Source: Candidatus Phycocordibacter aenigmaticus
GTDB taxonomy: Bacteria > Patescibacteriota > Minisyncoccia > Phycocordibacterales > Phycocordibacteraceae
Direction: 5' to 3'
DNA length: 64,000 bases
Assembly: GCA_045401115.1 (NCBI GenBank)
Contig: CP174359.1
Coordinates: 355,247 to 419,246 of the forward strand
The notes below the pieces were generated by a model. It was given only the letters and a program-made list of their open reading frames with translations, made no database searches and had not been told where the DNA came from. A program made the translations under genes and the position numbers. Shown in pieces: positions 11,469 to 61,022 of the stretch. Within the stretch, counting starts at the first letter, position 1. Each line of letters begins with the position of its first letter.

Positions 11469-11498
11469 TTAAACGGCTCACTCCAGTGAGCCGTTTAA
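11469..11498. terminator. Bidirectional terminator hairpin (member of the AAACGGCTCAC palindromic family) between convergent typA and corA
   Basis: TTAAACGGCTCAC-TCCA-GTGAGCCGTTTAAA. Confidence 0.65.
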
Positions 11499-11514
11499 AA
11501 TAGAGCAAGTATTT

Positions 11515-22579: not shown

Positions 22580-24235
22580 ATGGCAAAAGATATTCTTTTT
22601 GACTCTGACGCACGTGCAACAGTAAAAGCGGGCATTGATAAAGCAGCGAATGCAGTAAAAGTAACTCTCGGTCCGCGTGGACGAAACGTAATCATTGATC
22701 GTGGCTATGGCGGCCCACATATGACGAATGATGGCGTAACAATCGCGAAAGAGATTTCGTTCAAGAATAAATTTGAAAACATGGGCGCCGAAATCGTGAA
22801 AGAGGTTGCCAATAAAACAAACGATCTTGCCGGAGATGGCACCACTACGTCGGTTGTGCTTCTCCAAGCACTCGTTGACGAGGGAATGCGTCACACCGCC
22901 ATGGGGCTTTCCGCTATGGGTATTCGCGCGGGGATGGAACAGGCGTCAAAAGATGTAGTGAGTGCACTTAAAGTATCTGCGAAGAAAATTCCTGAGAATT
23001 CAAGTGAAGAGATAAAACAAGTGGCTACTATTTCAGCAGAATCTGAAGCGATTGGTGAAAAGATTGCTGAAGTGATTCAGAAGGTTGGCAAAGATGGCGT
23101 GGTGAGTGTTGACGAATCACAAGGTACTGAAATTGAAACCGAGGTCGTAGAAGGTATGGAATTTGACCGTGGTTACGTATCTGCGTACATGGTAACGAAC
23201 CCTGAGCGACTTGAAGCTGAATATAAAGATGCGGCGATTTTAATTACTGATAAAAAGATTGCGTCTGTGCAAGAGATAGTACCTCTTCTTGAAAAGGTGG
23301 CACAGTCAGGTAAGAAAGAATTAGTTATTATTGCCGACGATATTGAAGGCGAAGCGTTAACTACGTTTGTGGTAAATAAACTTCGTGGTTCATTTTCAGT
23401 GCTTGGGATAAAAGCTCCTGGATATGGTGAACGTAAAAAAGATATGTTGGCGGATATCGCAGCAACCACAGGAGGTACGGTGGTAAGTGATGATGTCGGC
23501 ATGACTCTTGATAAAGTTGAAACAAATATGCTCGGTCGTGCGCAGAAAGTAGTTGCAACAAAAGACACCACTACTATCGTAGGAGGAAAAGGAAAGAAAG
23601 CGGATCTTGAAGAGCGGGTAGCATCATTGCGTGCACAGCACAAAGCGAGCGATTCTAAGTTTGATAAAGAAAAACTGGAAGAACGTATTGCAAAACTTGC
23701 CGGTGGTGTTGCGGTGATTCGTGTGGGTGCGGCAACCGAGACTGAAATGAAATACCTTAAAGACAAAATTGATGACGCGGTTGCGGCAACTAAAGCAGCA
23801 ATTATGGAAGGTATTGTTCCTGGTGGTGGCGCAGCGCTTGTGAAAGCTGCATCAAAGGTAGCTGAAAAAATGAAGTGGGACAGTATGGATCAAGCTGAAG
23901 CGACTGGGTATCGTATTGTCCTTGAAGCGCTGAAGCAACCACTTAAGCAGATTGCGTTAAATGCAGGTAAAGAGGGTGCAGTAATTGTTGGCGACGTAAT
24001 GCGCGGTAAGGCGAACAGTGGCTATGACGCTCTTAAAGATGAGCTCGTACCTGATATGATTGCAGCAGGAATTATTGATCCGGTCCGAGTGGCTCGAGGT
24101 AGTGTTGAGCACGCTGTTTCAGCGGCAGCAATTCTTCTCACCACTGAGGCGGCAATTGCCGAAGATCCGGACGATGAGAAAGAAAGCAGCGCCGGTGCTG
24201 GCGGCGGCATGCCGGGAATGGGTATGGGAATGTAA
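22580..24235 (+). CDS. groEL: Chaperonin GroEL
   Basis: Full-length Cpn60, C-terminal GGGMPGMGMGM tail. Confidence 0.95.
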   Translation: MAKDILFDSDARATVKAGIDKAANAVKVTLGPRGRNVIIDRGYGGPHMTNDGVTIAKEISFKNKFENMGAEIVKEVANKTNDLAGDGTTTSVVLLQALVDEGMRHTAMGLSAMGIRAGMEQASKDVVSALKVSAKKIPENSSEEIKQVATISAESEAIGEKIAEVIQKVGKDGVVSVDESQGTEIETEVVEGMEFDRGYVSAYMVTNPERLEAEYKDAAILITDKKIASVQEIVPLLEKVAQSGKKELVIIADDIEGEALTTFVVNKLRGSFSVLGIKAPGYGERKKDMLADIAATTGGTVVSDDVGMTLDKVETNMLGRAQKVVATKDTTTIVGGKGKKADLEERVASLRAQHKASDSKFDKEKLEERIAKLAGGVAVIRVGAATETEMKYLKDKIDDAVAATKAAIMEGIVPGGGAALVKAASKVAEKMKWDSMDQAEATGYRIVLEALKQPLKQIALNAGKEGAVIVGDVMRGKANSGYDALKDELVPDMIAAGIIDPVRVARGSVEHAVSAAAILLTTEAAIAEDPDDEKESSAGAGGGMPGMGMGM

Positions 24236-24264
24236 TCCGTGATTATATTGCCCGTTATCTTTTT

Positions 24265-24296
24265 AATAAACGGCTCACCATAGTGAGCCGTTTATT
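24265..24296. terminator. Terminator hairpin after groEL (AAACGGCTCAC palindromic family)
   Basis: AATAAACGGCTCAC-CATA-GTGAGCCGTTTATT followed by T-run. Confidence 0.65.
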
Positions 24297-24336
24297 TTTA
24301 TTCATTTTTTTAATAGATGTTTGATATACTACAGAC

Positions 24337-24900
24337 ATGACACCTATATATATTATTCTTGCTGTTGTAGCAGTGGCACTCGGTTGGTTCATTGCTACGT
24401 ATAACGGTTTTATTCGTCTTATCAATCGAACTAAAGAGGCATGGGCTGACATTGATGTTCAGTTGAAGCGCCGGTATGACCTGATTCCAAATCTTGTGGA
24501 TACAGTAAAAGGCTATGCAACTCATGAAAAAGAAACTTTGCAAAAAGTAACTGAAGCGCGCACCAGCGCGATGAATGCAACTGGTACTGCTGAAAAGGCA
24601 CAGGCTGAAAACATGCTTTCAGACACATTAAAGAGCTTATTTGCTGTTGCAGAAAGTTATCCTGATTTAAAAGCAAATGAAAACTTTTTAGAGCTACAGC
24701 GAGAACTCTCAGATACTGAGAATAAAATTCAAGCAGCACGTCGGTTTTATAACACCAATGTGCGTGACCTTAACATTATGGTAGAGCAGTTTCCTGCAAA
24801 CATAGTTGCAGGTATCTTCAAGTTTACGCAAAATGACTTCTTTGAATTAGCTGAGGGTGAACAAGAAGCTCGAGACCCTGTTAAGGTTTCCTTTGACTAG
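24337..24900 (+). CDS. lemA: LemA family protein
   Basis: N-terminal TM, RRYDLIPNLV and NVRDLN LemA motifs. Confidence 0.85.
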   Translation: MTPIYIILAVVAVALGWFIATYNGFIRLINRTKEAWADIDVQLKRRYDLIPNLVDTVKGYATHEKETLQKVTEARTSAMNATGTAEKAQAENMLSDTLKSLFAVAESYPDLKANENFLELQRELSDTENKIQAARRFYNTNVRDLNIMVEQFPANIVAGIFKFTQNDFFELAEGEQEARDPVKVSFD

Positions 24901-24911
24901 TTACAAGTCCT

Positions 24912-25286
24912 ATGGGCCGCGTATACTACAATAAGTTAGTACGTGACAAAATAGAAGAGAAAATTCACAGCAAAGGTGAATCGTGTGAGGTGCGCAGCAT
25001 TGAAAATATTGCGGAATTTGAGCAAGAACTTCTCAAAAAAATAACTGAAGAGGCAACAGCACTATCCCGCGTGCGTTCTCGGAGCGAATTCCTCAATGAG
25101 TATGCTGACCTGATGGTAGTACTTGATACCCTTACCAGAGAGCTTGAGTTTTCTGAGGCAGATATAAAAACAGCGATTTCTGAAAACATTAAAGAAAAAG
25201 GAGGATTTTCAAAAAAACATTTTCTTATATGGTCTGAAGATGCTAATTATATGAGTAATGAGACTCCGCAAGGTATAAAAAAATAA
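24912..25286 (+). CDS. MazG-like nucleotide pyrophosphohydrolase (small all-alpha NTP-PPase)
   Basis: YNKLVRDKIEE N-terminus, EYADLMVVLDTL, C-terminal EKGGFSKKHFL. Confidence 0.5.
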   Translation: MGRVYYNKLVRDKIEEKIHSKGESCEVRSIENIAEFEQELLKKITEEATALSRVRSRSEFLNEYADLMVVLDTLTRELEFSEADIKTAISENIKEKGGFSKKHFLIWSEDANYMSNETPQGIKK

Positions 25287-25288
25287 CT

Positions 25289-26188
25289 ATGGCTTCACTC
25301 TATACAGATGCAGACAAAAATATACGTAAGACGTGGTTCTTAATGCTCACGTTCTTCTTTGTTGTGGTCGGCTTAGGTTGGGCTTTTTCATATATCTTCG
25401 AGAGTCCGCTTATTTTAATTGTTGCCGTAGTATTTTCTGTGGTGATGAACATTGGTAGTTTTTGGTATTCAGATAAACTAGCACTCGCTACCAGTGGTGC
25501 AAAGTCAGCAGATGAAAAAGAATTTCTTGAGGTGCATCGCATCCTTGAAAATTTATCTATCGCCACCGGTATTCCAAAGCCGCGTTTGTATATCATCAAT
25601 GATCCGGCACCGAACGCGTTTGCCACTGGTCGCGATTATAAACACGCAGCAATTGCTGTGACCACCGGATTGCTTTCTATGATGGAGCGCAGTGAACTCG
25701 AAGGGGTGATTGCGCATGAGCTTTCGCATATTAAAAACCGTGACACGTTGGTGATGACCGTGGTGGTAGTGCTTCTCGGTTTTGTGACACTCCTCTCTGA
25801 TTTCTTCCTCCGTAGTATGTTGTGGGGCGGTATGAGTGGAAATGGCGGGGGAGAGCGTGACGGCAGAATGCAAATGATTATGATTGTCGCTGGTTTTGTG
25901 CTCGCCATTTTCGCACCGATTGTGGCGCAGCTCATTCAATTTGCTATTTCACGTAAGCGCGAATTCTTGGCAGATGCATCTGGTGCATTGATGACGCGTT
26001 ACCCTGAGGGGCTTGCTAGTGCACTTGAAAAAATCGGTGCGTATAAAGCGCCTATGAAGCGTGCCAATCATGCCACCGCCCACCTCTTTATTGGGAATCC
26101 ATTCGGCGCAAAAGCAATGAAGGGAATGAATCGCCTGTTTTCAACGCACCCACCAGTAGAAGAACGTATCGCCGCGCTACTTAAATAA
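25289..26188 (+). CDS. htpX: Zinc metalloprotease HtpX
   Basis: HELSHIKNRD HExxH in a 4-TM M48 peptidase. Confidence 0.9.
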   Translation: MASLYTDADKNIRKTWFLMLTFFFVVVGLGWAFSYIFESPLILIVAVVFSVVMNIGSFWYSDKLALATSGAKSADEKEFLEVHRILENLSIATGIPKPRLYIINDPAPNAFATGRDYKHAAIAVTTGLLSMMERSELEGVIAHELSHIKNRDTLVMTVVVVLLGFVTLLSDFFLRSMLWGGMSGNGGGERDGRMQMIMIVAGFVLAIFAPIVAQLIQFAISRKREFLADASGALMTRYPEGLASALEKIGAYKAPMKRANHATAHLFIGNPFGAKAMKGMNRLFSTHPPVEERIAALLK

Positions 26189-26463
26189 ACACACCATCAT
26201 ACAATACAGCGGTGTTTTTTGGTTTATATATCGTTCTTAATGGTTCCTTTAAATGCCTCAGCAGCCGCCACAAAAGCGCCTTGTTGCATAAGGGCTAATT
26301 GTTTATGTGTTTTGGCTTGTTCATAATGAGCAACCGCCTGAGGATCTCGTTCTCGTGATGCCATATCTTTTGTATAAGAGAGGGTTACCTCCTCTTATAG
26401 GAAGAACCTGGTTGTGAGCAGTGAGGTTACTAATACATTTTAATTTTGTTATAAAGAGTGTCA

Positions 26464-26550
26464 CGGAGGAGTGGCTGAGTGGTCGAAGGCGCTCGCTTGG
26501 AAAGCGAGTGTGGGTTTACACCCACCGCAGGTTCGAATCCTGTCTCCTCC
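26464..26550 (+). tRNA. tRNA-Ser (anticodon GGA), class II with long variable arm
   Basis: GGAGGAG acceptor stem, anticodon loop TTGGAAA, T-arm GCAGG-TTCGAAT-CCTGT; CCA not encoded. Confidence 0.85.
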
Positions 26551-26736
26551 GCAGATGTCTAAGAAAATGCGAAAGCGTTTGATTAGAAAAAGCTGCGCAA
26601 GGAGAGAGAATTCGAACGGGAAGGGGGTCGGGGAAACGGGAGTTTCCCCGTGGCGGAATGAGGCGAAGCCGGACATAAAACCGAGGGGTTTTATGAGCGC
26701 AGCGAAGCGAGCAGTGAGATTCCTGTCTCCTCCGCA
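26551..26736 (+). mobile_element. tRNA-flanking structured element A, ending in a direct repeat of the tRNA-Ser 3' end (att-like)
   Basis: 18/19-nt copy of the tRNA 3' end at 26716-26736; GNRA hairpin 26563-26578; hairpins 26629-26650 and 26674-26695. Confidence 0.5.
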
Positions 26737-26963
26737 CTAAACAAAAGGATTGGCTTTGTGCTAGTGCTTTTGTTTTATATAAGGAGCGGCAGGATGAGAA
26801 GCAAGATGCTGGGAGCGTAAATTTTCTTGAGTGAGACGAGGTGGACAACTCTTGCTTGTGAACTCCTTTCTGACGGTGTATTTTAAAGACGGCTTGAACG
26901 GATTTCTAACCTTGTGCTACTCCTCGTGGATCGGTGTTGGTGGAGCAATAAAGCCGCTTTATT

Positions 26964-35884: not shown

Positions 35885-36151
35885 GATGTCCGCGCTAGAA
35901 CGCTTCGCTATCTCACTGCTCCCCAGCACCAGTTTGAGACAAAATGAAAATGGTTCGAAAATCTTTGTATGGAAATGAAACGTATCATACCTACTCACGT
36001 CCGTTCTCAAACTGGAGCTGGGTGTGCTCATAGAACCCTCGGTTCTATGTCGGCCAAAGGCCTAACTCCTCCACGGGAAAACAACGTGTTTTCCCGACCC
36101 TTTTCCAGTTCGATTCCTAGCAAGGGCACGGAATATGCTTCGCATTTTTAT
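35885..36151 (-). mobile_element. tRNA-Arg-flanking structured element E (related to element A), with an inverted copy of the tRNA 3' end
   Basis: 21-bp inverted repeat 36108-36129 / 36154-36175 involving the tRNA 3' end; hairpins 36029-36049 and 36074-36096 homologous to those of element A. Confidence 0.45.
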
Positions 36152-36227
36152 TGGTGCCCTTGCTAGGAATCGAACCTAGATCTAGAACTTAGGAGGTTCT
36201 TGTTCTATCCATTGAACTACAAGGGCA
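36152..36227 (-). tRNA. tRNA-Arg (anticodon CCT), CCA encoded
   Basis: Reverse complement gives TGCCCTT acceptor, anticodon loop CTCCTAA, GGTTCGATTCC T-arm, ...GGGCACCA. Confidence 0.85.
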
Positions 36228-36325
36228 TAGTGCTTCACGATAATGCGCGTCTTTTGCAAGCAAGAAGTGAATAGAAGTCTTGCTTATATTCACGCCGACG
36301 CGCCGCAAAAGTGGAAGCGCATTAT

Positions 36326-36598
36326 CTTACCACGCGCCCGCGTATGAAAAGACACGCAGTGCTTTCATACAAGAGCCAAAGGTTTGTGGTATTCCCACTG
36401 GCTCATGAAATACACGCAGTGATTTCATACAAGGGTGAGTAAAGGAGCTCGCTTACATTTTTGTTGAGGCGATGGAAAAAGTAAAGCGTGTTGCCTTACC
36501 ACGCGCCCGCGTATGAAAAGACACGCAGTGCTTTCATACAAGAGCCAAAGGTTTGTGGTATTCCCACTGGCTCATGAAATACACGCAGTGATTTCATA
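36326..36598. repeat. Two ~104-bp perfect direct repeats (36326-36429 and 36495-36598, period 169 bp), each holding two palindromes with a conserved ACACGCAGTG centre
   Basis: Direct comparison; TATGAAA...TTTCATA and CATGAAAT...ATTTCATA sub-palindromes. Confidence 0.8.
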
Positions 36599-36673
36599 TA
36601 AGGCATCGGACGTATCAAGCCGCACGGGGGTAAATACCCCCTAAACGGCTCTCTATGTTGTACACTGTTTTAT

Positions 36674-37012
36674 ATGAATCAGCAAAAGCAAAAAAAAGAA
36701 CCAGGACCTTCTTTAGATGAAGTATATAAGCTTGCTAAGGAAAATAATCGCATGCTCAAAGCCATGCGTCGGGATGCTTTCATTGGTGCTATCTTAAAAT
36801 TTGTGTTCTGGATTGCGATACTTTTTGTTATTCCTTATATTTTATATACGGTGTATCTGCAACCTCATTTAGTCAATCTTCAAAATACATATAATCAGTT
36901 TAATCAAAAAGTAGAAGCAATTGACGGCGCCTCACAAGAACTTCAGCAAGTGCGTGAAAGCCTCCCTGAAGGCTTTAACTCCTTTCTTGAGCAGTTTGGT
37001 ATTGGTGGCTAG
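36674..37012 (+). CDS. Hypothetical membrane protein
   Basis: Single TM, coiled-coil C-terminus. Confidence 0.4.
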   Translation: MNQQKQKKEPGPSLDEVYKLAKENNRMLKAMRRDAFIGAILKFVFWIAILFVIPYILYTVYLQPHLVNLQNTYNQFNQKVEAIDGASQELQQVRESLPEGFNSFLEQFGIGG

Positions 37013-37188
37013 AAAGATGGATTTTTGAGTGGGTTTTGATAGAATGGGGGACATTGCTAAGATTGAATGGTCTTGGTGATTGCCCTGCCGAGGGAAGATG
37101 TACTTCGTGTTATCTTGCCTCGGATGCAGTAAAGTTCCTCTCGAGGTAAAGCTTCTTACGGTCGCTTTGCCTCGGCGTCGAGCTGAGA

Positions 37189-37284
37189 GAATACGCTTCC
37201 TTTTTTCCGGCACGTCAACAAAAATGTAAGCGAGCTTCCATTTTTGTCTTGCTTGGAAAAATCGCGTATTCTCGTTAACCTCTT
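37189..37284 (+). promoter_or_regulatory. Conserved upstream stem-loop/promoter region of tRNA-Phe (homologous region lies upstream of tRNA-Arg)
   Basis: 10-bp inverted repeat GAGAATACGC...GCGTATTCTC; shared CTTGCTTG-AAAA-CGCG-ATT-TCGT block with 36229-36330 (tRNA-Arg). Confidence 0.45.
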
Positions 37285-37358
37285 GCCGAGGTAGCTCAGG
37301 TGGTTAGAGCACTGGTCTGAAGAACCAGGTGTCGGCGGTTCGAGTCCGCCCCTCGGCA
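37285..37358 (+). tRNA. tRNA-Phe (anticodon GAA)
   Basis: GCCGAGGTAGCTCAGGTGGTTAGAGC..., anticodon loop CTGAAGA, GGTTCGAGTCCGCC T-arm. Confidence 0.9.
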
Positions 37359-37561
37359 CAAAAACAATGAAGCCCGATACGAGAGTATCGGGCGATTTGT
37401 TTTGTAGCTACGAGGGCGGACTCGAAAGACGGAGCCGTGGGTCCCCATTGTGCTGAGTTTCAGGCACAATGGGGCGGCGAGTCCGGGCAGGAGGTTGTTA
37501 TGAGTTTTTCTATCGAGAGATAGGTAAAAACGAATTACGAACCTGACGCCGAGTCCGCCCC
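37359..37561 (+). mobile_element. tRNA-Phe-flanking structured element B, ending in a 12-nt repeat of the tRNA T-loop/T-stem (CGAGTCCGCCCC)
   Basis: GNRA hairpin 37373-37392; hairpin 37443-37476; shared 16-mer CGAGTCCGGGCAGGAG 37478-37493; junction GACGCCGAGTCC 37545-37556. Confidence 0.45.
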
Positions 37562-41595: not shown

Positions 41596-41629
41596 ATATA
41601 AACGGCTCACCCAGGTGAGCCGTTTATAT
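41596..41629. repeat. AAACGGCTCAC palindromic hairpin (family copy 3) in a divergent intergenic region
   Basis: ATATAAACGGCTCAC-CCAG-GTGAGCCGTTTATAT. Confidence 0.7.
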
Positions 41630-41738
41630 CTATGGCATGTCCGTCCTTTAATGAGGGAAGCGACGAATAAAGTTCTATCACTGCCTAAGCTATTGCAATT
41701 ATAGCTATTATGTTGCATAATAAATATAGATAAAATAT

Positions 41739-44003: not shown

Positions 44004-44010
44004 ATACAGA

Positions 44011-44213
44011 TGTTGTGGGCGATACAGGACTCGGCGTCAGGTTCCTAAGCTCATTCATCGCTCCGCTCTTCATTCACTAAGGACCTCCTGCCCGGCCTCG
44101 CCGACAAGCACTCGCTCTCGCTCGTCTTGTATACCGGCTCCGGCTTTCTCGTCCTGTGTCGCTGCTACAAACCTAAGTTGCATCATGCATGCGCATACTG
44201 CTCTAAGGTTTTG
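44011..44213 (-). mobile_element. tRNA-Val-flanking structured element D, ending (44011-44030) in a 20/21-nt direct repeat of the tRNA 3' end
   Basis: TGTGGGCGATACAGGACTCG present at 44011-44030 and 44212-44231; GACGCCGAGTCC junction and CCGGGCAGGAG motif on the minus strand. Confidence 0.5.
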
Positions 44214-44287
44214 TGGGCGATACAGGACTCGAACCTGTGACCTCGTCAACGTCAATGACGCGCTCTAGCCAACTGAGCTAATCGCCC
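44214..44287 (-). tRNA. tRNA-Val (anticodon GAC)
   Basis: Reverse complement gives GGGCGATTAGCTCAGTTGGCTAGAGC, anticodon loop TTGACGT, GGTTCGAGTCCTGT T-arm. Confidence 0.9.
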
Positions 44288-49803: not shown

Positions 49804-49887
49804 GGAGGAGTGCCCGGAATTGGTAACGGACCGCTCTCGAAAAGCGGCGCGGGAAACCGCTTGTGGGTTCGAGTCCCATCTCCTCCG
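49804..49887 (+). tRNA. tRNA-Ser (anticodon CGA), class II
   Basis: GGAGGAG acceptor, 3-bp D stem, anticodon loop CTCGAAA, variable arm, GTGGG-TTCGAGT-CCCAT T-arm. Confidence 0.8.
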
Positions 49888-50083
49888 CAAATGTCTAAGA
49901 AGACGCGAGAGCGTCTGATTAGCAACAATTGCGAGAAGGAGATGAGGCGAGAAAGACGGAGGCCGCGAAGCCGTGACGATAGTACACGTGGCCGAGTCCG
50001 GGCAGGAGCCACTTAGTATTTTGTGAGCAAAGCGAGACAAAATAGTTAGTGAGTTGACGCCGAGTCCCATCTCCTCCGCAAAT
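49888..50083 (+). mobile_element. tRNA-Ser(CGA)-flanking structured element C, ending in a 23-nt direct repeat of the tRNA 3' end
   Basis: CGAGTCCCATCTCCTCCGCAAAT at 49871-49893 and 50061-50083; GNRA hairpin 49901-49916; 16-mer CGAGTCCGGGCAGGAG 49993-50008. Confidence 0.5.
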
Positions 50084-50632: not shown

Positions 50633-50710
50633 GTTTTTCTTGGTTATCTACTATAATTTCATAGTACCATTCTCGTTGATATTGTGTAGCGTCACACCTA
50701 TAAACGGCTC

Positions 50711-50740
50711 AATGCATTGAGCCGTTTATTACACACCCTT
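50711..50740. repeat. AAACGGCTCA palindromic hairpin (family copy 4) in a divergent intergenic region
   Basis: ATAAACGGCTCA-ATGCAT-TGAGCCGTTTAT. Confidence 0.7.
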
Positions 50741-60980: not shown

Positions 60981-61022
60981 CACACCCCCTGGTCAACACC
61001 CGGGTGTTGACCAGGGGGTGTG
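60981..61022. repeat. 42-bp perfect palindrome in the divergent intergenic region
   Basis: CACACCCCCTGGTCAACACCC|GGGTGTTGACCAGGGGGTGTG. Confidence 0.85.

Follow-up and report, generated by a model that had tools for sequence, protein, structure and literature searches.

A probable family of ORF-free insertion elements with a conserved folded RNA core behind tRNA genes of Patescibacteria

The 183-nt insert which directly follows the tRNA-Ser(GGA) gene (E1) is probably a copy of a family of non-autonomous, ORF-free, mobile or selfish insertion elements of Patescibacteria (CPR) built around a conserved folded RNA core. In the window (the whole stretch of 64,000 nt that was analysed), 5 of the 6 tRNA genes carry ORF-free trailers of about 200 nt with two types of core; no trailer was found at the sixth, tRNA-Glu. 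The family of E1, referred to as type 1, is apparently undescribed and a new kind of element. A search of full-text literature, the coverage of which was incomplete, found no description of such elements, and a prior description is possible.

The insert E1 and its siblings in the window

The original prediction of an insert lying between an intact tRNA gene and a copy of the tRNA 3′ end was confirmed. The left repeat GAATCCTGTCTCCTCCGCA and the right repeat GATTCCTGTCTCCTCCGCA are identical at 18 of 19 positions and spaced by 183 nt, which is the geometry of an insertion. By our own estimate, about 4e-8 matches of this quality would be expected by chance within 200 nt. The insert had been given a length of 186 nt, which we correct to 183 nt. 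It had also been described as ORF-free, and this holds in so far as no credible gene is present, although mechanically called ORFs of 71–110 aa overlap both the insert and the tRNA. The original prediction contained neither the segment antisense to the tRNA end (AS) nor the four sibling elements of the same window (Table 1).

RNA folding of E1 gave a minimum free energy of −67.9 kcal/mol (z = −3.6; none of 200 shuffled sequences was equally stable) and returned all three hairpins named previously. Two of them, CGGGGAAAC-GGGA-GTTTCCCCG and CATAAAAC-CGAGGG-GTTTTATG, had been placed correctly, and for the latter a GAGG loop closed by the 9-bp stem CAUAAAACC/GGUUUUAUG is the better reading. The third, AAATGC-GAAA-GCGTTT, is also present but lies 2 nt away from the position proposed for it (26563–26578). 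An independently assembled Logan contig (L001, 4 samples) matches positions 23541–26694 of the window at 100% identity and covers tRNA-Ser(GGA) and E1 up to the second core hairpin. Since this contig ends before the downstream repeat, it does not confirm that repeat. Chance or an assembly artefact is an unlikely explanation of the insert. The A/T-flanked hairpin 3′ of the downstream repeat may be a weak terminator candidate; a terminator scan made no call for it. On the other side of the tRNA gene, a 46-aa ORF (26224–26364, minus strand) is situated between htpX and tRNA-Ser; gene calling on L001 predicts it as well, and the loci L003 and L004 have small minus-strand ORFs in the corresponding place.

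Table 1 Features of E1 and of the sibling elements (window positions)
Feature	Position	Strand	Description
tRNA-Ser(GGA)	26465–26553	+	Intact; last 19 nt (26535–26553) = S, left direct repeat; ARAGORN 26465–26552, Rfam 26465–26551 (58 bits)
tRNA-Ser(GGA) discriminator G	26551	+	Next bases CA, not CCA
E1	26554–26736	+	Directly after tRNA-Ser(GGA); type 1; 18/19 direct copy of tRNA end
Spacer hairpin hp1	26558–26587	+	UCUAA / AAAUGC-GAAA-GCGUUU / UUAGA; GAA/UGA internal loop
Hairpin AAATGC-GAAA-GCGTTT	26565–26580	+	
AS	26594–26617	+	TGCGCAAGGAGAGAGAATTCGAAC; antisense to tRNA 3′ end and T loop, about 20/24 (hand alignment); adjoins core
Type-1 core of E1	26618–26717	+	Covariance model R1: 58.4 bits, E = 1.4e-14
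Core junction GGGAAGGGGGUC		+	First part of E1 core, 5′ of helix Pa
Hairpin CGGGGAAAC-GGGA-GTTTCCCCG	26629–26650	+	
Helix Pa	26630–26649	+	GGGA loop
Core junction GUGGCGGAAU		+	Between helix Pa and inserted mini-hairpin
Inserted mini-hairpin GGC-GAAG-CC	26662–26670	+	Extra in E1 (13-nt insert) between Pa and Pb
Helix Pb	26674–26695	+	Hairpin CATAAAAC-CGAGGG-GTTTTATG
GCGAAGC mini-hairpin	26702–26708	+	In E1 core
Conserved 3′ tail AGCAGUGAGAU	26710–26720	+	Extends beyond 26717, overlaps start of S′
S′	26718–26736	+	Downstream tRNA 3′ end copy, 18/19; exact match begins at 26721
A/T-flanked hairpin AAACAAAAG...CUUUUGUUU	26740–26776	+	3′ of S′
E2	49890–50083	+	After tRNA-Ser(CGA) (49804–49888); type-2a core
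E2 arms	AS about 49930–49951; S′ 50061–50083		S′ = 23-nt perfect repeat of 49870–49892
E3	44008–44212	−	After tRNA-Val(GAC) (44213–44287, minus strand); type-2a core
E3 S′	44033 down to 44008		Repeat of 44231 down to 44206; 26-nt direct copy at 92%
E4	37360–37561	+	After tRNA-Phe(GAA) (37285–37359); type-2a core
E4 arms	AS 37414–37443; S′ 37550–37561		S′ only 12 nt
E5	35887–36151	−	After tRNA-Arg(CCT) (36152–36226, minus strand); type-1 core
E5 AS	36129 down to 36108	−	Perfect 22-nt inverted copy
E5 core match	36114 down to 36047	−	Covariance model: 43.4 bits, E = 1.9e-10
E5 other parts	S′ about 35920 down to 35887		Degenerate S′; long extra hairpin

A scan of the window with the covariance model of the type-1 core gave exactly two matches, E1 and E5. 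The remaining elements E2, E3 and E4 share the type-2a core (...CGAGAAAGMCGGAG...GGCGAGKCCGGGCAGGAG...UGACGCCGAGUCC). All the window elements contain a segment antisense to the T arm and the acceptor 3′ strand of their tRNA.

Several other features of the window were recorded. The long hairpin of the type-2 core has a conserved symmetric internal loop (CUUAG / UUAG, or UUAUG / AAUUA; e.g. 50010–50052, 44090–44040 on the minus strand, and the loci L037 and L032), the resemblance of which to a GNRA-tetraloop receptor hints at tertiary docking. The palindrome TAAACGGCTCA-nnnn-TGAGCCGTTTA occurs in four copies with variable loops (11469–11504, 24266–24301, 41598–41633 and 50700–50735), one of them 31 nt after the groEL stop codon; these copies look like REP-like elements or a common terminator family. 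Between the divergent tRNA-Arg and tRNA-Phe genes there is a 156-nt tandem repeat (36279–36603, copies 87% identical) with an inverted partial copy 675 nt away (37179–37236). This region contains repeated CAUGAAA...UUUCAUA hairpins, and a 112-aa ORF (36674–37012) lies between the copies. Finally, a perfect 42-nt palindrome CACACCCCCTGGTCAACACCC|GGGTGTTGACCAGGGGGTGTG was found at 60981–61022.

The conserved core and the target-derived arms

The folding of the type-1 core was analysed in a gapless, sequence-anchored alignment of 29 cores, which was built without reference to the 3′ arms. It replaced plain MAFFT alignments of whole elements, in which the misalignment was too great for RNAalifold to be of use. 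The two core helices Pa and Pb pair in 97.6% of the cells of the 29-core alignment. Changes on both sides of a pair were found in 32 cells, compared with 9.0 ± 3.0 in shuffled alignments (0 of 500 reached 32) and 0–6 in slid controls. One base pair of Pa, followed across 125 distinct cores, was A:T in 52 and G:C in 23 of them and was missing from both arms in at least 41; the exceptions were 4 G:T and 2 A:C. Pa and Pb are supported by covariation, and the core thus qualifies as a structured RNA. The purine-rich junctions GGGAAAGGGGUC and GUGGNGGAA are almost invariant in the same alignment. Two of the three hairpins originally predicted thus covary in a larger alignment, whereas the third, within hp1, showed a compensatory change only against the spacer of E2 behind tRNA-Ser(CGA). 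These two spacers are 82% identical and differ in hp1 by one compensatory pair (A:U to G:C) and one wobble-to-Watson–Crick change.

The strand on which the core functions was considered by several measures. The loops of Pa are GNRA in 83% of the cases on the tRNA-sense strand, mostly GGGA. In the pairing of AS with S, G.U pairs outnumber A.C pairs 29 to 13, and in the pairing of AS with S′ the counts are 18 and 14; this strand bias is weak evidence for RNA. Folding energies (z = −2.4 on the plus strand, −4.0 on the minus strand) did not help to tell the strands apart. The sequence GCGAAGC is a classic stable DNA hairpin. Since the frequent GCGAAGC mini-hairpins of the elements are stable as DNA as well, a single-stranded DNA intermediate is also possible.

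The type-1 core pattern GGAAN{1,2}GGGTCGGGN{0,1}AAACNNNNGTTTYCC was run on metagenome contigs and detected at least 120 loci. With those of the window and of further loci included, 132 cores were analysed, and 79 of them have a tRNA gene on the same strand 2–133 nt upstream, with about 40 anticodons among the matches listed. The 3′ flank of the core matches the cognate tRNA end exactly over at least 9 nt in 75% of these 79 tRNA-linked cores, but only in 3% if the tRNAs are permuted among the loci; for AS the corresponding values are 59% and 7%. Of the 93 tRNAs in the window and in related Paceibacteria loci, 17 are followed within 400 nt by a direct repeat of 10 nt or more from their own 3′ end, and 13 have an inverted copy; the upstream controls gave 2 and 0, respectively.

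All these elements follow the layout intact S – spacer (often a hairpin) – AS – core – S′. AS is antisense to the start of S and fused to the 5′ end of the core, and S′ is a second copy of S fused to its 3′ end. AS is complementary to the core-proximal part of S or S′. As AS and S′ are mutually complementary and fused to the core ends, they make a target-derived closing stem around the core. In the cases that could be resolved, the complete host gene lies on the AS side, with its 3′ end if it is on the same strand or its 5′ end if it is on the opposite strand. The elements preserve their target genes by duplicating the last ~15–60 bases, the full range of repeat lengths being ~12 to 66 nt. In tRNA targets the repeat starts in the T loop, where its left boundary adjoins the conserved element end GUGAGAU or GUUCGAU, and its right boundary falls anywhere between 0 and +51 nt beyond the tRNA end; at L089 and L110 the repeat takes in a whole downstream hairpin.

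Protein genes are targeted according to the same S/AS/S′ logic. Copies were found at the start of dnaK (L079), at the starts of translational GTPase genes at the AH[VI]D motif (L095, L108, L129), at the start of rplK (L131), at the stop codon of rplL (L101, with a 29-nt AS and a 3-nt loop between AS and S) and at other gene 3′ ends (L126, L130). In some copies at protein or tRNA genes, S and S′ are nearly identical and run into the non-coding flank (L095, L131, L089, L110); in others they differ almost only at synonymous sites (L079, L108, L129; 7:1 in dnaK, and ~75% identity in a GTPase gene). The same core subtype occurs at different targets, and cores at different tRNAs are up to 90% identical. 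Such retargeting pairs include the cores at Met and Leu tRNAs and those at Lys and Glu tRNAs (86% over 129 nt for Lys/Glu). Because similar cores carry different, locally matching arms, the arms must presumably be made or exchanged when the element enters a site.

At the tRNA-Ser(GGA) locus of close relatives, the site downstream of htpX and the tRNA proved to be either empty or occupied by other types. It is empty in L197, L010 and L004 (HtpX identity 86, 82 and 78%, respectively), contains a 45-nt mini trailer with a 10-nt repeat in L002 (83%) and a ~185-nt element with a type-2b core in L003 (83%). More distant genomes have type 2b, mini trailers, other types or type 1 (L067) there. The distribution among close relatives is patchy. 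In the neighbouring slot between lemA and htpX, some relatives (L197, positions 750–1474; also L198, L199, L010, L051 and L168) encode a 223-aa protein of the Y1_Tnp family (PF01797). The gene is flanked by inverted palindromes CCTCTGGAAGCGWCGCTTCCAGAGG in a RAYT/REP-like arrangement, and a MazG-like ORF (24912–25286) occupies this slot in the window.

Some loci deviate from the standard layout. Three type-1 cores lie within 2.4 kb at L087 (656–1300), where tRNA-Asp is followed by a truncated and then a complete core, which is a nested or tandem insertion. Very short trailers of 45–95 nt (L002, 3507–3560; L021, 9152–9245) keep the antisense segment or a hairpin and a 10–17-nt copy of the tRNA end without the full core, and may be deletion derivatives. 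At L059 (660–790), L083, L084 and L067, type-1 cores are followed by the 3′ hairpin GCAAATCCCATTTGC and then by a tRNA-Ser-like 3′ fragment. L059 has no intact upstream tRNA, and its core is flanked by a 16-nt repeat of the hairpin GCAAATCCCATTTGC itself. These cores look like orphaned or rearranged copies.

No protein partner of the elements was detected. All the 20 largest ORFs of the window are housekeeping genes, with no reverse transcriptase, integrase or transposase among them. All-against-all clustering of ORFs within 3 kb on either side of the cores at ~120 loci revealed no recurrent neighbour protein but only housekeeping families, the commonest of which was found at 4 loci, and no reverse transcriptase, nuclease or recombinase linked to the elements. 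Neither larger autonomous versions with a distant S′ within 8 kb nor a transposition event, an excised form or a perfect pair of empty and filled alleles was seen in this material.

Possible mechanisms and alternative explanations

The target-specific arms would be made or replaced when an element enters a site, and we prefer RNA-templated copy-in with a staggered break as the mechanism. The element would be transcribed, in the case of E1 probably as the tRNA 3′ trailer, and the T-loop-like 3′ end of its RNA (GUGAGAU or GUUCGAU) would anneal to the target. A polymerase or reverse transcriptase supplied in trans could then copy the core into the staggered break, and S would thereby be duplicated; AS would arise as the new strand snaps back onto that of the target. 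Copying of this kind would automatically match both arms to the target and would result in AS adjoining the core, in a variable repeat length and in a fixed orientation relative to tRNAs. Another idea, in which S and the spacer would be copied in full by fold-back, was rejected, since AS matches only the core-proximal part of S.

In the second-best mechanism, a small element which brings its own replacement for the gene end would be integrated under the direction of a guide, with AS acting like the exon-binding sequence of an intron or like a guide sequence. This mechanism would better explain the synonymous-only divergence of S and S′, a role of the spacer as a terminator or promoter, and the similarity of spacers across species. 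The older protein-gene copies, which differ almost only synonymously, are better accounted for by a carried gene end or by later allelic exchange than by a fresh duplication. Most S′ copies are followed by CA, and the others by CCA, CCC or CCG, just like the element-free orthologous tRNAs; S′ therefore looks like the native gene end. The CCA which sometimes follows S′ had suggested a retro-copy of mature tRNA, and this was rejected as a general rule because most S′ copies are followed by CA. Candidate catalysts for either mechanism would be a host enzyme, a transposase or reverse transcriptase not linked to the element, and the element's own RNA. An objection to mobility as such is that the spacers after tRNA-Ser are similar across species, which could mean old vertical inheritance and repeated losses.

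A bolder form of the mobile-element reading can be put forward only tentatively, and we consider it rather less probable than not. According to it, the elements would be a protein-gene-free class of mobile elements, in which a ~100-nt core RNA copies or captures the last 15–60 nt of the gene entered into its own closing stem, in sense and antisense. The stem would thus serve as a self-reprogramming RNA guide with built-in target repair, and the elements would spread in streamlined CPR genomes by host enzymes only or by their own catalysis.

An unlikely alternative is that the elements are host-beneficial cis-acting RNAs, i.e. 3′ trailers or 5′ leaders which stabilise or terminate transcripts or control their processing via alternative pairings (acceptor:S, S:AS and AS:S′) and which have been spread by ordinary recombination. 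The covarying core helices and the GNRA loops agree with such a role, as do the excess of G.U over A.C in the AS:S pairing and the conserved tandem mismatches of the G.A type, as we read them, at the base of the AS:S′ stem. The discriminator is followed by CA in 16 of 21 element-bearing tRNAs but only in 24 of 71 element-free ones (window and loci L002–L076), which suggests co-transcription and adapted 3′ processing. Correspondingly, CCA follows 1 of 21 element-bearing and 22 of 71 element-free tRNAs, and CC follows another 10 of the 71. The CA bias of element-bearing tRNAs may be an adaptation that lets RNase Z process a trailer with a folded structure. However, the closest relatives have no insert at this site, cores of different types were seen at one and the same site, and the same core is found at unrelated genes on either strand. 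Moreover, the displaced S′ copy has no obvious use, and the tRNA-Glu of the window does without a trailer. A benefit to the host and mobility could be compatible with each other.

It is improbable that the elements are non-autonomous relatives of single-stranded DNA hairpin elements (IS200/IS605 PATEs or REPINs) moved by a Y1 (HUH) transposase or a RAYT encoded elsewhere. Those are small, hairpin-rich extragenic elements at gene ends as well, mobilised in trans by a single-copy gene, and the Y1_Tnp gene between inverted palindromes in relatives, the abundance of hairpins including GCGAAGC, and the internal target-complementary segment, which recalls the guide sequences reportedly used by IS608, all fit this idea. 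Nevertheless, Y1_Tnp is absent from the window and was never adjacent to an element among the loci compared, where its occurrences were limited to one relative's locus, present in three copies, and to three other loci. IS200/IS605 elements make no target duplication, in contrast to the long one present here, and REPINs and PATEs have neither target-derived arms nor a complex multi-helix core. The GNRA bias of the loops and the strand-specific motifs also point to RNA.

The arrangement of E1 had originally been compared to attL...attR, and the intact tRNA upstream of a partial copy does have this geometry. It recalls the islands and prophages of tyrosine integrases and the CIMEs at tRNA and tmRNA 3′ ends, in which the insertion also starts in the 3′ part of the gene (T loop), the gene is kept intact by a second copy of its end and direct repeats flank the insert. 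Crossover in the T loop is reportedly common among integrases. Yet the model of a decayed scar or a cis-mobilisable element of such an island or prophage is largely refuted and very unlikely to hold. There is no integrase or other gene, or gene remnant, in or beside E1, and the members of the family measure only ~100–250 nt. The structured core is conserved in more than 130 copies at ~40 different tRNAs and several protein-gene ends, with repeats specific to the target each time. A site-specific recombinase with one att core cannot yield target-specific repeats at so many sites. The internal antisense copy would be left unexplained as well. A blastn search of E1 against phage and plasmid collections gave no match, and the final type-1 pattern and the type-2 pattern had no matches in 2.9 million viral contigs; five hits of a first, looser type-1 pattern were all due to chance in GC-rich coding DNA.

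Least probable of all is that the tRNA is followed by an RNA of a known catalytic family, namely an intron of group I or II or a ribozyme like the HDV-like 'theta' type of tRNA trailers. The position directly after the tRNA, the GNRA loops and the segment complementary to the upstream 'exon' would recall such RNAs. However, E1, E5 and the tRNA-Arg/tRNA-Phe intergenic region gave only the tRNA and noise in Rfam 15 (gathering threshold; E ≤ 10), with no family besides tRNA even at E = 0.01, the guide is far longer (10–29 nt) than in introns, the exon end is duplicated, and some copies are antisense to the adjoining protein genes, so that splicing from the host transcript cannot be a general role.

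Comparison with other element classes and implications

The elements also differ from several other classes of small repeats. MITEs share element-encoded terminal inverted repeats and make a short target duplication of fixed length, whereas AS and S′ differ for each target, being copied from it, and the duplication varies in length. Parallels are found in SINEs and other target-primed retroposons of eukaryotes, which are likewise short, non-coding, non-autonomous, tied to tRNA sequences and high in copy number relative to genome size, with a target duplication of variable length and with one fixed and one variable junction. Unlike SINEs, however, the type-1 elements are bacterial, have no poly(A) or LINE-like tail, duplicate up to 66 nt anchored in gene ends, contain an antisense target copy, and have no partner reverse transcriptase among the 20 largest window ORFs or the neighbours of ~120 loci. 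The ncRNA of retrons (msr-msd) is also an RNA of ~150 nt whose 5′ and 3′ ends pair (a1/a2) to close internal hairpins, but the type-1 elements lack an adjacent reverse transcriptase and their closing stem is copied from the neighbouring gene.

These findings have practical consequences for the analysis of CPR genomes. Partial tRNA copies and duplicated gene starts or ends can mislead gene callers, tRNA counts and predictors of att sites or prophages in CPR metagenome assemblies. Repeated cores may also break assemblies, and the independent Logan contig indeed ends inside E1.

Few known genomes are as small and streamlined as those of CPR/Patescibacteria. Even so, structured elements devoid of genes follow 5 of 6 tRNA genes within 64 kb, and metagenomes contain the type-1 family at least 120 times. 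Mobile elements of this kind would have found a way into essential, highly conserved genes without doing harm and without encoding a protein. Their retargeting among dozens of sites via target-derived arms would then be relevant to programmable insertion tools and to concepts of mobile elements based on RNA.
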